A DNA stretch of 64,000 nucleotides from Escherichia phage FV3. Position 1 is the stretch's first letter. Each line of letters starts with the position of its first letter. The stretch lies in the sequence record NC_019517.1; one strand, written 5' to 3'. The notes under the pieces were generated by a model, which saw nothing but the letters and a program-made list of their open reading frames with translations, had not been told where the DNA came from and searched no databases. Below, in pieces: positions 10,566 through 42,857 of this stretch. A program made the position numbers and the translations under genes.

Positions 10566-10888
10566 TGACTAAAAACTCTGTAGATAATGCAATTATGGAA
10601 GCTGTTTTTGAGGATGACCATACAACAGGCACCATTAAAACAAAAAATACATTTATTGTTGCCACAGGTATGTGGCGGTTGTATGAAGATGACACTATTG
10701 CATACATCTTGTATACTGATGATTACGCAGATGATCGTGTATGGTCTGCTGTTTTAAAAGAGGACTGTGAGCTGATCGAGGGTGAGCGGTTATGCATGTT
10801 TACCAGTGTGGAAACAGATGTTAAGCTTTGCTCTCTTGTGTTGTTCAAAGACAAAGCTTATGCCCCAGATGAAGAGGAAACAGTATGA
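10562..10888 (+). CDS. hypothetical protein (108 aa)
   Basis: track ORF; no motif. Confidence 0.4.
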   Translation: MMTKNSVDNAIMEAVFEDDHTTGTIKTKNTFIVATGMWRLYEDDTIAYILYTDDYADDRVWSAVLKEDCELIEGERLCMFTSVETDVKLCSLVLFKDKAYAPDEEETV

Positions 10889-11514
10889 GAGAAAGACTGC
10901 TGTCTATAGACCAGTCTCTTACCCACACGGCCTGCGTTGTATGGGACGATGGTAGGCCTGTTCATAAGGTTGTGTTACGAACCCAAAGCTCGTCTGCAAA
11001 AGAGAAGAAACCAGGGACGGTTTCTTTTGCAACAGCTGCTGAGCGTATTGACTGGATCTGCAAACAGGTTAGATATTATATCCACACGCACCACGTTGAC
11101 ACCGTGGTCATGGAAGGGCTCTCCTTTGGATCGCGAGGAGATGCCACACGTGAACTGGCTGGGTTGTTTTACGGTCTTGAAGTTATGCTCTGGGATGCTT
11201 TAGCAGATTGTGAAAATGACGGCCTGTTTAAGGTCCACACAGTGACACCAACAACTGCCAAAAAGTTTGCTCGTAGTCATCTTCCTGAAGAACTTGCTTT
11301 TGAGGAGAAGAAAAAGCTTGACAAAAAGACGGGTAAAGAGCATACTGTGAAGAAGCCTGTTACGATGGATAAAAAGTTGATGGTTAAGGCCTGTGAAGTA
11401 TCTGAACCTGGGTTCCTAGATGGGATCAATTTGGTACAAGGTAAGGCCGATCTCGCAGATGCTTATTGGATAGGCAGGGCGCATCTGGAGGGATTATCGC
11501 AAAGCGTAAAATAA
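10885..11514 (+). CDS. hypothetical protein, possible RuvC-like (RNase H fold) nuclease
   Basis: LSIDQSLTHTACVVWDD and VVMEGLSFG resemble RuvC/YqgF motifs; weak. Confidence 0.4.
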   Translation: MRERLLSIDQSLTHTACVVWDDGRPVHKVVLRTQSSSAKEKKPGTVSFATAAERIDWICKQVRYYIHTHHVDTVVMEGLSFGSRGDATRELAGLFYGLEVMLWDALADCENDGLFKVHTVTPTTAKKFARSHLPEELAFEEKKKLDKKTGKEHTVKKPVTMDKKLMVKACEVSEPGFLDGINLVQGKADLADAYWIGRAHLEGLSQSVK

Positions 11515-12041
11515 GAAAGAAAGCTGTCAAAGCCCCCGTTCATAACGGGTGGCTAAAAGATTCTAAGGATATAGCCAACTTTCGGAAAGAATTGTCAGAA
11601 GAGCAGGATGGTCTTGATCCGATCTTGTGCGAACCACTTCGTAAGCCTTGTTTAGATCATGATCATCTGACTGGTCGTTGCAGGGGTGTTTTGTCCCAAT
11701 GCACTAATACCTTTGAGGGGTATGTGCTTAAATACTGGATGAAATACTGTAACGAGTATACAGATTGCAGTTTATCAGAGGCGTTGCGCCGGATGGCTGA
11801 CTATCTGGAGAAAGACTACAGCGACTTCCCGCTCCACAAAAACTACAGGGACGATATGACAAAGTTCTTGAGGAGATGCTCTAAAGCTACGATTATTGCA
11901 CGGGCAGAATCGGATCTCGATCTTGTCATTAATTCAGAGTACACCAAGCATGAGGCTATTGAGGCCTACATGCAGGAGTTTATAAAGAAAACTGAGGAGA
12001 GAGATTTCTATGGAGACGAAAAAGGTATTCAATCCTTGTGA
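11466..12041 (+). CDS. endonuclease VII-like Holliday junction resolvase
   Basis: CEPLRKPCLDHDH...GRCRGVLSQCTNTFEG matches T4 gp49 HLDHDH...RGLLCNLCNAAEG core; start uncertain (overlaps upstream ORF). Confidence 0.75.
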   Translation: MDRQGASGGIIAKRKIRKKAVKAPVHNGWLKDSKDIANFRKELSEEQDGLDPILCEPLRKPCLDHDHLTGRCRGVLSQCTNTFEGYVLKYWMKYCNEYTDCSLSEALRRMADYLEKDYSDFPLHKNYRDDMTKFLRRCSKATIIARAESDLDLVINSEYTKHEAIEAYMQEFIKKTEERDFYGDEKGIQSL

Positions 12042-13227: not shown

Positions 13228-13235
13228 CAAGTAGA

Positions 13236-13260
13236 GGGAGGCTTGCGCCTCCCTTTTCAT
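13236..13260 (+). terminator. rho-independent terminator
   Basis: hairpin GGGAGGC-TTGC-GCCTCCC followed by TTTTCATTTT after stop 13227. Confidence 0.6.
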
Positions 13261-13272
13261 TTTGGAGGCACC

Positions 13273-14079
13273 TTGAGCAAGAAAGAGTCCAACGACAAAT
13301 ATTACACAGACCCTGAGTATGCAGAATATCTTGTTGGTAAAGTAAAAGTTAGGTATGGGAATTGTGCATACGTTGAGCCTTCTGCTGGAAAGGGTTCTTT
13401 TTCAAAACTATTTTCAGAGATACTGTCGTACGATTTGGTACCAGATCCTGAATTTGAAGGCCCAACACCGTGTATTAAGGCAAACTTCTTAGAGGTGTAC
13501 CCTAAGGCTGATGTCTTCATAGGTAATCCTCCATTCGGCAAAAATTCGTCTTTAGCTTGCAAGTTCTTTAACCACTGTGCATCATTGCTAGAGCCTGGCG
13601 GGGCTATAGCCTTCATCTTGCCACGGACATTTGAAAAAATATTTTTTGCAAACAAGCTGGACATGTCAATGCACCTTATCTACAGCGAAAGGTGCCCCAA
13701 GAACTCGTTTTTACTTAACGACAAACCTTATGACGTGCCATGTGTTTTCCAAATTTGGGAGAAAAAGGTGTGCAATAGGGATCCTGTAGAGATTGGGGAG
13801 AATAAGTTATTTTCTTTTAGCACACCAGATGACTACGACTTCTGCATAAGACGTGTTGGGTATAATGCTGGAAAAGTATTGGGGGAGGATGACCCAAAAT
13901 CTGAAGAATCAACATATTTCATAAAATCTTTAGTTGATGGTGTTGACAGAGTGTTTGCTGAATGCTATTCTTCTTTTCAAGAAGAAGCAGGTAAGACTGC
14001 TGGAATGAAGAGTATAGGCAAGAAAGAACTACAATACATTTTGGAGACTAGGTATGATCAAAAGTATAGACTTGACTAA
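13273..14079 (+). CDS. N6-adenine DNA methyltransferase
   Basis: catalytic motif IGNPPFG; probable TTG start with SD GGAGG (track ORF begins 13243 inside the terminator). Confidence 0.65.
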   Translation: MSKKESNDKYYTDPEYAEYLVGKVKVRYGNCAYVEPSAGKGSFSKLFSEILSYDLVPDPEFEGPTPCIKANFLEVYPKADVFIGNPPFGKNSSLACKFFNHCASLLEPGGAIAFILPRTFEKIFFANKLDMSMHLIYSERCPKNSFLLNDKPYDVPCVFQIWEKKVCNRDPVEIGENKLFSFSTPDDYDFCIRRVGYNAGKVLGEDDPKSEESTYFIKSLVDGVDRVFAECYSSFQEEAGKTAGMKSIGKKELQYILETRYDQKYRLD

Positions 14080-14512
14080 AGAGCTTACTGATGCAAAGGC
14101 TTTTGGTGAGACAGCCGTGCAAAGGGGACAGGCTATGGGGCTGGCACTACCTTTTGTCTTAAAAGAGCATTTTACAGATTTTCAGCTTATCCGGGGCGAA
14201 AAGGGGATGCTTATTCTGGAACATAAGCTGAGTAAGAAACGTTATAAAGTTGTTTTTAATTCTAAAGCTCCAACAAAACTTGGATTCAGAACTTACAATC
14301 TCAACCCTTCCTATACTAAGGGTGTTGGAAGAGTTGAACAGCAGCATCTCAGTGCTAGAGCTTCTTTAGCCCCTTTGATGCTAAATTTCTCAGGTGTGGC
14401 TTTGGGATACCTGGATAAGAAAAGAGTTCTTCATGTTCGTTTTACAGACTTTGTAACGCTTTTAGCTAACAACGAAGTAGATGAAAAGGGACGTGTAAAA
14501 ACAAACTTCTAA
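14054..14512 (+). CDS. hypothetical protein (152 aa)
   Basis: track ORF; no motif. Confidence 0.4.
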   Translation: MIKSIDLTKELTDAKAFGETAVQRGQAMGLALPFVLKEHFTDFQLIRGEKGMLILEHKLSKKRYKVVFNSKAPTKLGFRTYNLNPSYTKGVGRVEQQHLSARASLAPLMLNFSGVALGYLDKKRVLHVRFTDFVTLLANNEVDEKGRVKTNF

Positions 14513-28090: not shown

Positions 28091-28116
28091 AAAGCCCTCT
28101 TCGGAGGGCTTTTATG
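28091..28116 (+). terminator. rho-independent terminator
   Basis: AAAGCCCTC-TTCG-GAGGGCTTT followed by TAT. Confidence 0.7.
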
Positions 28117-28130
28117 ATCTGGAGATTTGC

Positions 28131-28664
28131 ATGACTTGTGCTAGAAAACCTGATGAACAACGTAACGCTTACGACGAGTATGTGACACCGGAGTGGTGTG
28201 CAGAAGGGCTGTATGACCTTATTCCGTTCCCAGAAGACTGGACCTACTTAGAGCCTTGCAGGAATAGCGCTTCAGGTGTGTTCTACTCCCGTATGCCGTT
28301 AGGATCTGCATGGGGAGAAATTCAAGAAGGTGTTGACTATCTGAATACAGAATACAACCATGTTGACTGTATTATCACCAACCCGCCGTACAGCCTGGCT
28401 CGTGAGTTTGTGGACAAGGCGTTGAAAGATGCCGACGTAGTTATTATGCTTTTGCGTCTTAATTTTCTGGAAAGCAAGACCAGATTTGAATGGTGGCTTG
28501 ATAATGCACCTACCACTGTGATCACAATATCTAAGCGTCCGTCATTCCAATCCAATGGTAGAACGGATGGGCAGGCATATGCCTATTTTGTATGGGACAA
28601 GAAAAACCGTCTAGGCTTGCCGCCATTTATGTGGTTGGCACCACCAGAGGCAGACTTGAAATGA
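28131..28664 (+). CDS. small N6-adenine DNA methyltransferase
   Basis: motif IV DCIITNPPY. Confidence 0.7.
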   Translation: MTCARKPDEQRNAYDEYVTPEWCAEGLYDLIPFPEDWTYLEPCRNSASGVFYSRMPLGSAWGEIQEGVDYLNTEYNHVDCIITNPPYSLAREFVDKALKDADVVIMLLRLNFLESKTRFEWWLDNAPTTVITISKRPSFQSNGRTDGQAYAYFVWDKKNRLGLPPFMWLAPPEADLK

Positions 28665-29656: not shown

Positions 29657-29890
29657 ATGAAAGTTAAATTTCTTACAGATTTAGGGTACCCTTCCTTGGT
29701 TGACTGCGTTGGTAAAATTGTGGAAGCAAAACGACTATCTGCAAACGATAATGTTGTCATGGTTAAGGGAAAAGATTTACTATCTGCAGGTGCAGAGTCT
29801 GGCAGGATCTCTCCTGACTATACGTATTACCTGTCTTTAAGTAATCTACCAGAACGAGGCGGCAAAGGCCTTGAAGTTGTGGAGGAGTGA
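29657..29890 (+). CDS. small acidic protein, paralog family A
   Basis: MKVKFL...KGKDLLSAGA...LEVVEE; SD GGAGG. Confidence 0.5.
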   Translation: MKVKFLTDLGYPSLVDCVGKIVEAKRLSANDNVVMVKGKDLLSAGAESGRISPDYTYYLSLSNLPERGGKGLEVVEE

Positions 29891-30414
29891 CAGGTATGCT
29901 GCTAGTTGATTGGAAAGATTTTTATGGCGATAAAGACCCGAAAGCCTTTATATATAAACCTTGGAGATACTCAGAGAGTCAAATTGCTGCAATAAACCTT
30001 ACAGCAAAGCGCCGAAAAATTATCGAAAGTAAATACAGGTACGCTCAGCTAGTGGCTGGTGTTTCTCCACAGGTAGAGAGTTTTGTGCTTAAACTGTACG
30101 AAAAGTTTATGAGTTACGATCTGTCATTCGTGAAGGTGGGTGAGGATTTATCCCCTGGTAACAACGTAACACGTTGGAAAGTTTCATGCGACAAAAAACT
30201 TCCGGTAAGTATTGAGGTGTGTCGATACTGGGGGTATCATGAGTGTGGCTTTTATGACTACCATGATGTAGAAATAAAGCCACGCAATCATCTAAGCGAC
30301 CCAGAAAAAGATTACTTGAAGCATGTGATTCTTTCCATGTTTGGAGGGTATATCACAGAGAAAAATAGCGAAGACAGAATATCCTTTCTTAACAGTTTGA
30401 ACCGGGAGATGTAG
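29887..30414 (+). CDS. hypothetical protein (175 aa)
   Basis: track ORF. Confidence 0.45.
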   Translation: MTGMLLVDWKDFYGDKDPKAFIYKPWRYSESQIAAINLTAKRRKIIESKYRYAQLVAGVSPQVESFVLKLYEKFMSYDLSFVKVGEDLSPGNNVTRWKVSCDKKLPVSIEVCRYWGYHECGFYDYHDVEIKPRNHLSDPEKDYLKHVILSMFGGYITEKNSEDRISFLNSLNREM

Positions 30415-40328: not shown

Positions 40329-40508
40329 CACACAATTAGCTGCCCGGCTAAAGTGCTGGAAGCACCTATAACACATCTTTCAACTAAATTTCCTACCACC
40401 ACAATCACTTACCTCCCACACATGACTGTTTGCTTGTTTAGTGAGCAGTCATTCCTTGACATTCTTGCCTATCCTGATAAAATTAAGTTCTTCTCTTTTC
40501 TTTTACCG

Positions 40509-40535
40509 AGTAATTCGGGTTTTCTGTTCTCTTCG
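40509..40535 (+). terminator. possible terminator closing the plus-strand block
   Basis: hairpin CCGAGTAATTCGG followed by T-rich tract (approximate). Confidence 0.35.
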
Positions 40536-42559
40536 GTTTGAAGGGGTATGGAGATACACCTGAGTGAACAGGGTGAACAACCGAACCTTTAGCTATGGCA
40601 TTAGCATGGCGAAGCGGACGGGTGACGAAAGAGGGGCCGGAGGACACCAGTCACTGCCATATGGTATATGGGTGATAACCTGAAGAGTCTGAATAAGTGT
40701 TTAAGTACCAGTCAGAGGAAAAGGTGAATGGTAGCCGAAGGGGGAGGGGGGTTTCTTGTATCTTTAATTTGTATACTTTATATACACTTGTAAACCAATT
40801 CAATTAGAATATGGATACCACACAAAGTGGATAGAGGCAAATATTCCCTATTAAACTTGAATTATTTATAGAAAATACCACAACACTGCTTAAGTCTTTG
40901 ATTTTACACACAAATATTACAAATATCCTGCCTCTATATTTAACATACCTGTAACATATTCCATACTCTCCCTGATTGATCAATTCCCCAACTACATCCC
41001 CATATTTTCCCTTCCTGTACTACCCCTGCCCCGCCGGGAGTCCCGTCATATCTGGCTTTCCAGCAAATATCACACCCACAAATATCATTGCCTGAAGAGG
41101 GTTTCATCCCATAATACCTGCCTTACCCGAAGAGCGCTTCATACACCACGTAAATTTTTTAATTGACCTGCAATTTTCCTGCAGACCCACCCCCTGCCCA
41201 GCCGGAGAGGTTGGCTTTTCCCACACAGGCCTGAAGAGTCAGCCAGAAATATCTGAAGGGGGTCCAGTTCTACCACGATTTTGACCTGACCTACAGGAGC
41301 GCTGCCAGGCGGACGAAATGGGAATACTTCTCATTCTTATAACAATTCTCAAATATCGGGGCAGTGAGGCAAATTAATAGGCGAGGCCGTTCACACAGTG
41401 GCACAACATTTGCAAGCTATTTTGCGGGGGTGAATGAGAATACCTATCATTGTGAGAATAGTTATCATTACGGGCAATTTAACATAATACCCATTATGCG
41501 CACCACTGGCGATACATACAGGGATTGATAACATGGGTTACTGTTTACGCATATAACAATTGTATTTCTTATTATTTGTGGGGGATATAGTTAGCAACCA
41601 ATAGATTAGTTATTAACCTGCGGACTTCTGACCGTCTAGACGTCCAAACGCCCACACCACAAGGATTATACATACACTCCTGCATGTAAACAGGGCCGCA
41701 AAAATGCTACCATACCAGTTTGTAAATTTTCCATGCAGCACTTGACAAAGAGGAGAAAAACTTGTCTGACACACTGGACACCTTATACACCTTATACACT
41801 TTCGATACAATAACGATTGTTATTATTTCATGTTTCACTGTTCACGTATAGATTGTTCCTGCATAGACTGTTTACGCCTGGATAGTTTACACCTTGACAG
41901 TTTACGCAGATATGATAAGCCATGACATTCGTTTGCATAGTTGCCTTATTGTTACAGGTAAAACAATTACATTGTTAACTATTTCTTATCTTTCTCTTAG
42001 TCATCTAATGATTCCAGTCAGTATAGTTATGTACAGTAAACATTAGACGACTAAATATTTCTCTGATTATAGTAACCTATCGTGACAATTTCTAACTGTT
42101 TACGAAAAATGTTGACACCTGGGCAGGTTTATGTTATGCAGTTTGTACGAATAATTATTTTGTACAGGTATTGACTATTCCGTTATTCTGTGGTTGGAAT
42201 AAATACTTTGCAGGCTATAGAATGGTGATCGTACGTGGATTCTGAGATCTGTCGGCTATAGTTACACCCGATTTTTCACGTAGGACACGCTTTTTGGTTT
42301 GTGTAAGTGTATGACTTATAAGGGTTTTTAATTGTTGACAGTATACTGAAGATGTGCATCAGGTTAAATTTTGTGCAATAGCTGCATTACGTGCAATTTT
42401 GGGAGAGAAAACGGGTAAAAATAGCACCGCTACCACACAATGAAAGGTTATGCAATAGCTATTTTACATGTATATTTGTACAGTGTGCGGGATTGATGGC
42501 TCGTCAATTATTCCACTTGTCAGGTAGGGCCGTTTATGGTAGGAAAAGAGCAGACAAAA
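40536..42559. other. gene-free repeat-rich region between convergent blocks; candidate origin, regulatory or ncRNA locus
   Basis: no credible ORF over 2 kb; motif CTGTTTACG in at least 5 copies (41540-42100), CCTGAAGAG x3, GAGAAYRNTTATCATT x2. Confidence 0.5.
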
Positions 42560-42590
42560 AGAAAGGGGCCTAAGCCCCCTTGATAATGTT
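42560..42590 (-). terminator. rho-independent terminator closing the minus-strand block
   Basis: on minus strand AAGGGGGCTTAGGCCCCTT hairpin followed by TCTTTTTGTC. Confidence 0.6.
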
Positions 42591-42593
42591 GTA

Positions 42594-42857
42594 TTATTTG
42601 TTGCTCATCCAGTTTTCCCAAGCTGCCTGATAATCTGCCTCACTGCGGCGGATCTCTTCTTGTTCTTCAAGCCGGATCTCTTCTTCCAGGTACCCAAGGA
42701 TATCGGATTTTTTGGTCTGGCGTAACATCCAATCATCTTTTTTACGAGTAAAGATCTTGTACGCTTTCTCGCAAACCTCTTTTTTACTACCTTTTTGGAC
42801 TTCAAGAACTTTGTAGGCCATGTACTGAACTAGTTTGAGCTGATCAAGACGTTTCAT
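42594..42857 (-). CDS. hypothetical protein (87 aa)
   Basis: track ORF. Confidence 0.45.
   Translation of the reverse strand: MKRLDQLKLVQYMAYKVLEVQKGSKKEVCEKAYKIFTRKKDDWMLRQTKKSDILGYLEEEIRLEEQEEIRRSEADYQAAWENWMSNK

Follow-up and report, generated by a model that had tools for sequence, protein, structure and literature searches.

Two orphan N6-adenine methyltransferase genes of an rV5-like Escherichia coli phage and the marks they may leave at GATC and GTAC

Orphan methylases are textbook constituents of phages. T1 Dam, P1 Dam and the methylases of lactococcal 936-type phages are phage-borne and come without nucleases; such enzymes are thought to pre-empt host restriction, and for the 936-type phages protection has been demonstrated (PMC4190342). 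The Dam enzymes of E. coli and of phage T4 (alpha class, PF02086) place N6-methyladenine (m6A) at GATC, again with no partner nuclease. In a 64,000-nt stretch of Escherichia phage FV3 (NC_019517.1; the whole stretch is called the window), two genes, named MT1 and MT2, appear to encode nuclease-free enzymes of this kind, for both of which protection is putative. The window is part of a Vequintavirus, that is, an rV5-like E. coli myovirus, and the DNA around both genes shares 93-99% identity with that of about 119 phages recorded in GenBank. Overall, the observations are best explained by two orphan DNA N6-adenine methyltransferases with which a lytic rV5-like phage marks its own DNA, a reading to which we give a probability of about 0.7. 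The finding is real but already known, as both genes are called putative N6-adenine methyltransferases in more than 100 related GenBank genomes and one orthologue has been characterised by experiment; what is new is modest and consists of three inferences, namely the likely assignment of a GTAC mark to MT1, the exact agreement of genomic site counts with the methylation counts in print, and a family of restriction enzymes, so far without annotation, beside cellular relatives of MT1.

The closest described counterpart is found in Bas51 (phage WalterGehring, MZ501111), which is 93-94% identical to the window's phage and with whose positions 137436-71085 the window is collinear in reversed orientation. 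Bas51 mutants escaping two retrons were all changed in "an N6 adenine methyltransferase", the changes including D69G, D79G and T83P; the methylase sets off both Retron-Asa1 and Retron-Squ1, and its overexpression is toxic (Nakamura et al. 2025, PMC12548924). Three genes of Bas51 are annotated as N6 adenine methyltransferases, and since D, D and T at positions 69, 79 and 83 are found in bas51_0176 only, this must be the mutated gene. MT2 shares these three residues and is 98.9% identical to bas51_0176 over all 177 residues, with two amino-acid differences. The two genes also have the same neighbours. The relevant features of MT2 are:

28131-28664, + strand: MT2, encoding a 177-aa minimal N6-adenine methyltransferase, GATC-specific by orthology
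28335-28337, + strand: MT2 codon D69; D69G is a retron-escape mutation in Bas51 (PMC12548924)
28365-28391, + strand: motif IV region of MT2, D79-C-I-I-T83-N-P-P-Y87; D79G and T83P are Bas51 escape mutations

Nanopore sequencing of wild-type Bas51 gave 1405 methylated adenines in GATC, 509 in GTAC and 576 in other contexts; the T83P mutant gave 35, 511 and 349, respectively (PMC12548924, S4 table). The Bas51 genome contains 703 GATC sites (1406 adenines) and 258 GTAC sites (516 adenines), which means that 1405/1406 GATC adenines and 509-511/516 GTAC adenines are methylated, or about 99-100% for both motifs. With only 35 methylated GATC adenines left in T83P, it follows that the phage enzyme marks essentially every GATC and that host Dam adds almost nothing; by the same comparison (509 versus 511) the GTAC mark is independent of MT2. 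E. coli K-12 and B are not known to possess a methylase for GTAC, and the GTAC mark must therefore come from an enzyme of the phage. In the preliminary description of this DNA, which had proposed protection of the phage genome against host restriction or epigenetic control, virion DNA devoid of adenine methylation was named as the outcome that would speak against the idea; in Bas51 virion DNA, on the contrary, practically every GATC and GTAC site is marked by m6A (PMC12548924).

By orthology, MT2 would methylate the adenines of GATC, the activity having been seen in the 98.9% identical orthologue. It is thus Dam-like in action but outside the Dam family: no match to PF02086 (Dam) is obtained at E<=0.1, and neither the alpha motif order nor an inserted recognition domain is present. 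The open reading frame (ORF) at 28131-28664 (+) includes DCIITNPPY, and its motifs LEPCRNSASG (motif I) and TNPPY (motif IV) stand in this order in what is a bare catalytic core; the 177-aa protein has no separate target-recognition domain, whereas the Dam enzymes of E. coli and T4 comprise about 260-280 aa. Most of MT2 is covered by phrog_799 (DNA methyltransferase; E 3.9e-67). The scores against PF05869 (19.1 bits; threshold 28.1) and TIGR01712 (16.5 bits; threshold 97) make it at most a distant relative of that phage N-6-adenine methyltransferase family; EcoRI_methylase is matched below threshold, the test against PF07669/PF02384 gave 13.3 bits, and no solved relative of MT2 was found by sequence.

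In the literature searched, the GTAC mark has no assigned enzyme, and MT1 is the obvious candidate. The candidates considered were MT1 and bas51_0070 (MT3, 441 aa, encoded outside the window); of these, MT1 is favoured, at somewhat better than even odds, as the GTAC enzyme of Bas51-type phages. Its features are:

13264-13268, + strand: Shine-Dalgarno sequence GGAGG of MT1, 4 nt ahead of TTG 13273
13273-14079, + strand: MT1, encoding a 268-aa gamma-class N6-adenine methyltransferase with a TTG start; candidate GTAC enzyme
13375-13401, + strand: MT1 motif I, EPSAGKGSF (residues 35-43), SAM (S-adenosylmethionine) binding; aligned to LEPACAHGPF of M.TaqI
13525-13536, + strand: MT1 motif IV, N85-P-P-F88, catalytic; aligned to NPPY of M.TaqI

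The mechanically delimited ORF, 13243-14079 (+), includes VFIGNPPFGKNS. Its first TTG, at 13243, falls within a terminator-like hairpin (13233-13256) and is not the gene start, although the preliminary description had given it as the outer boundary; the inner coordinates offered there, 13273-14079, are right, because GGAGG precedes TTG 13273 and the GenBank relatives start at the same codon. Most of MT1 is covered by phrog_5172, a group of unknown function (E 4.7e-124); the protein is 94.9% identical to bas51_0200 and is found in all of the approximately 119 related phage records. In the alignment of its family, E35, P36, G39 and F43 of motif I are invariant, as are the residues from G84 to G89 around motif IV. 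The order of motif I, motif IV and C-terminal domain is that of the gamma class. The AlphaFold2 model (predicted local distance difference test 92) shows a Rossmann methylase fold; a Foldseek search with it lists the tRNA methylase TrmN6 first, with M.TaqI (E 1e-7), M.BseCI and CamA alike over the catalytic domain, and returned no structural match for the C-terminal domain of about 100 aa. By sequence, too, M.TaqI is the nearest solved protein, being the best match in the Protein Data Bank (PDB), although a marginal one (E 0.07); it shares the gamma motif order but has 421 aa as opposed to the 268 aa of MT1. M.HpyAXII is an example of a small gamma-class protein that writes GTm6AC, a mark that blocks RsaI; it has 331 aa and NPPY with the catalytic Asn at position 87, where MT1 has NPPF with N85 (PMC2588503). 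M.CviQI and M.PabI are further m6A methyltransferases specific for GTAC. M.RsaI was set aside as a relative because it is an N4-methylcytosine enzyme (PMC6256690). PF26055 is listed for some MT1 homologues. The cores of MT1 and MT2 are remote homologues of each other (hhalign E 1.7e-5, 143 columns).

GTAC is rare in the phage, with a ratio of observed to expected occurrences (O/E) of 0.59-0.64 (in Bas51, 258 observed versus 441 expected); for 50 kb sampled from E. coli K-12 the corresponding value is 0.90. No such under-representation is seen for GATC. The scarcity of GTAC would be in keeping with selection in the past by enzymes that cut this site and may be taken as an indirect sign of it. 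The literature on restriction digests and methylomes of rV5 and its relatives adds little: the rV5 paper contains nothing on methylation, the paper on CB7 (Certrevirus) offers no more than a ClaI pattern compatible with methylation by Dam, and the metagenomic methylome literature mentions GTAC but makes no link to the family of MT1.

Hundreds of relatives of MT1, about 260 aa in length, are present in metagenomes and genomes. Of 80 loci from bacteria and archaea, 21, among them those of Rhodobacterales, Sphingomonadales and Poseidonibacter, have the gene followed on the same strand by one for a conserved partner protein of about 215 aa, the distance between the two being -64 to +39 bp and mostly -10 to +39 bp. 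By sequence, the partner has no Pfam, NCBIfam or PDB relative; its predicted model resembles type II restriction enzymes of the PD-(D/E)xK fold. This pairing of the cellular relatives with an apparently restriction-fold protein argues that the MT1 family acts on DNA. Tentatively, and with rather less than even confidence, it may be proposed that MT1 writes GTm6AC on Vequintavirus DNA and is a nuclease-free phage offshoot of an undescribed type II restriction-modification (RM) family, composed of a methylase of about 260 aa and a PD-(D/E)xK endonuclease of about 215 aa, which would be widespread among bacteria, Sphingomonadales and Rhodobacterales included. Should all members of the MT1 family have the same specificity, the endonuclease would represent a new family of GTAC-cutting enzymes; in any case, the cellular relatives are a pointer to restriction enzymes of a family without annotation, which is open to cloning and typing. 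A depletion of GCATGC in the partner-containing loci (28 observed versus 58.9 expected) is weak, fails correction for 64 tests, is affected by a differing taxon mix, and was not used.

Taken together, a scenario can be drawn in which both enzymes would be made during infection from the block of replication and nucleotide-metabolism genes and would mark newly made phage DNA. MT2 would methylate all GATC adenines of both strands, and MT1, with its M.TaqI-like core and C-terminal domain of about 100 aa, would most likely methylate GTAC. Host Dam does not keep pace with phage replication (35/1406 GATC adenines methylated when MT2 is defective), so that the phage would supply its own GATC mark and add one at GTAC. 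The presumed benefit is a site-specific masking against methylation-sensitive nucleases cutting GATC or GTAC; the known cost is that abortive infection sets in once retron DNA is methylated at GATC, which makes the GATC methylase also a liability. An anti-restriction role of the marks is putative. The matter is of some practical interest: rV5-like phages are candidates for therapy and biocontrol, and full m6A at GATC and GTAC affects which hosts restrict them; the mark would protect against methylation-sensitive enzymes and sensitise to m6A-dependent enzymes and to retrons.

Several points weigh against this reading of MT1 and MT2. The methylation counts come from Bas51 and not from the window's phage. 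Vequintavirinae were "exceptionally susceptible" to all six RM systems tested in BASEL; however, none of the six targets GATC or GTAC, and the result therefore shows only a lack of broad protection, site-specific protection being neither proved nor disproved by it (PMC8594841). The Bas51 methylase mutants plate at wild-type titre on a host without retrons (PMC12548924), from which it follows that the gene is dispensable in the laboratory. As for MT1, no Pfam or NCBIfam model is matched above its curated threshold (PF07669, Eco57I, scores 17.7 bits, below the cut-off of 25.3); avoidance of GTAC in the 80 loci of its cellular relatives is the same with (O/E 0.73) as without (0.76) the nuclease partner, and thus uninformative; and the Mod-like MT3 of Bas51 could be the enzyme responsible for GTAC.

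Among the alternatives, the one that survives best assigns the marks a mainly housekeeping role, in which they would keep MutH from nicking and SeqA from binding at un- or hemimethylated GATC, or would guide replication, packaging or gene timing. Such a role is compatible with self-marking by two orphan enzymes rather than exclusive of it, and it is a possible, if on balance unlikely, account of what the marks are chiefly for. Both genes lie within the replication and nucleotide-metabolism block, and when MT2 is inactive, Dam leaves phage GATC almost unmethylated (35/1406). In phage P1, packaging depends on Dam. On the other hand, the normal plating of the MT2 point mutants on the no-retron control means that the role is not essential, E. 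coli has no known host reader of GTAC, and clusters of either motif above random expectation are missing from the window, where the densest 150-bp intervals of GATC and GTAC are no denser than random placement would give. Nor does the window thus show clustering of the sort that would point to epigenetic control. The interpretation in the preliminary description is generic and partly supported.

Slightly less probable again is that the GTAC mark is made by the Mod-like bas51_0070, with MT1 marking a rarer DNA motif within the class of "other" methylated adenines or being weakly active. Bas51 has three enzymes of the N6A type, of which GATC only is assigned (PMC12548924), and the 349 "other" methylated adenines persisting in T83P leave room for a further motif. 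Among solved structures, those nearest to MT3, a PF01555 enzyme, are Mod subunits of type III systems, such as EcoP15I Mod. Type III Mod methylases typically target asymmetric sites of 5-6 bp. About 275 such sites are expected in 140 kb, a number near the 349, and MT3 would thus fit the "other" class better than GTAC. Moreover, MT3 is found in only about 85 of the approximately 119 related records, as opposed to MT1 in all of them, and the relatives of MT1 form classic two-gene type II cassettes. MT1 accordingly stays the preferred candidate.

That MT1 is an RNA adenine methyltransferase, acting on tRNA or rRNA and not on DNA, is improbable. TrmN6 heads the Foldseek results for MT1 and several RNA methylases come after it, some database sources name MT1 homologues "predicted RNA methylase", and one relative even has a TrmN6 annotation for MT2; yet M.TaqI, M.BseCI and CamA score equally well in the same search, a protein of predicted restriction-endonuclease fold is encoded directly downstream of cellular MT1 relatives, the MT1 homologue of phAPEC8 lies between the genes for primase/helicase and DNA polymerase, and the second m6A motif on phage DNA calls for an enzyme.

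The designation of both genes as orphans, made in the preliminary description, is borne out as well. Each ORF contains both an amino-methyltransferase motif IV and a SAM-binding motif I, and in a six-frame scan of the window MT1 and MT2 are the only long ORFs with [DNS]PP[YFWH], the four other matches being in ORFs of 84-108 codons. No adjacent restriction endonuclease shows up in Pfam and PHROGs scans of the neighbours, which comprise a DnaQ-like exonuclease, Endo VII, a dNMP kinase, a 5'-nucleotidase, a ClpP-like protease and small proteins of unknown function; a profile of the cellular partner family had no match in the window or in the whole Bas51 genome, each translated in six frames. The phage MT1 is thus, in all probability, a true orphan. 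That one of the small neighbours of unknown function is an unrecognised cognate nuclease would concern chiefly ORF 14054-14512 and is very improbable: although it overlaps the MT1 stop by 26 nt, which suggests translational coupling, and encodes a product (152 aa; phrog_9938, no known function) of a size also found among small restriction enzymes, PvuII for example, the ORF was rejected since it has no likeness to the cellular partner family (hhalign probability 0.1%), no PDB or Pfam match, and no conserved pairing, the gene behind the MT1 homologue of phAPEC8 being that for DNA polymerase.

Just upstream of the exonuclease gene and MT1, at 10885-12041, the window encodes homologues of a RuvC-like resolvase (phrog_159) and of Endo VII, which are recombination nucleases and not restriction enzymes. 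The inventory given by the window is partial for the whole phage, as two further methylase-like genes of Bas51 map 3-7 kb past the window end. Bas51 carries a type III Mod-like N6A enzyme (PF01555) at L005:14456-15781, present in only about 85 of about 119 relatives, and a "Dcm-like" protein without a Pfam match at L005:17042-17806.

Both methylase genes start directly behind a terminator-like hairpin:

13233-13256, + strand: terminator-like hairpin with a GC-rich 10-bp stem and a T-run behind it; lies between the DnaQ-like exonuclease gene and MT1, whose start is 17 nt further on
28091-28112, + strand: terminator-like hairpin with a 9-bp stem and UUCG loop; lies between the ClpP-like protease gene and MT2, whose start is 19 nt further on

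The first hairpin (-17.9 kcal/mol, z -2.3) is conserved in Bas51 and Bas59; the second has a folding energy of -14.9 kcal/mol (z -3.0). The location of the genes directly behind conserved hairpins, with no promoter-like site between either hairpin and its methylase gene, suggests that MT1 and MT2 are expressed at a low level by read-through, which fits the reported toxicity of overexpressed MT2. The 91 nt at the MT2 start, 71 nt of them upstream, are 100% identical in Bas50, Bas51 and the window, in phages that are otherwise about 6% apart. The leader of 19 nt that separates this hairpin from the MT2 start contains a GATC site (28116-28119); the presence of the site and the identical 91-nt setting could be chance.

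About 20 of the records matching the window have accessions MG0656xx and are named "Campylobacter phage" (D#, A135, A138 and others). Over the MT1 and MT2 genes they share 94-99% identity with rV5-like phages of E. coli; their Campylobacter labels are probably due to mislabelling or contaminant assemblies. Downstream of MT2, positions 29887-30414 (+) encode a homologue of the "putative glycosidase" of Bas51, a co-trigger of Retron-Asa1 (PMC12548924). The gene is a rare divergent allele, with at least 90% identity in 7 of 114 related phages and about 50% in the other 107, within flanking DNA that is about 94% identical; the protein belongs to phrog_13467 (unknown function) and is without a Pfam match. 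Finally, a region of about 2.2 kb (approximately 40400-42600) is poor in ORFs and has very few GATC sites; gene orientation switches there, and its counterpart in Bas51 (93911-96377) is likewise without annotation. It holds four copies of a ACTGTTTACGCATATA-like 16-nt repeat, three of which are spaced 30 nt apart at 41837-41912, and is possibly an origin or regulatory region.
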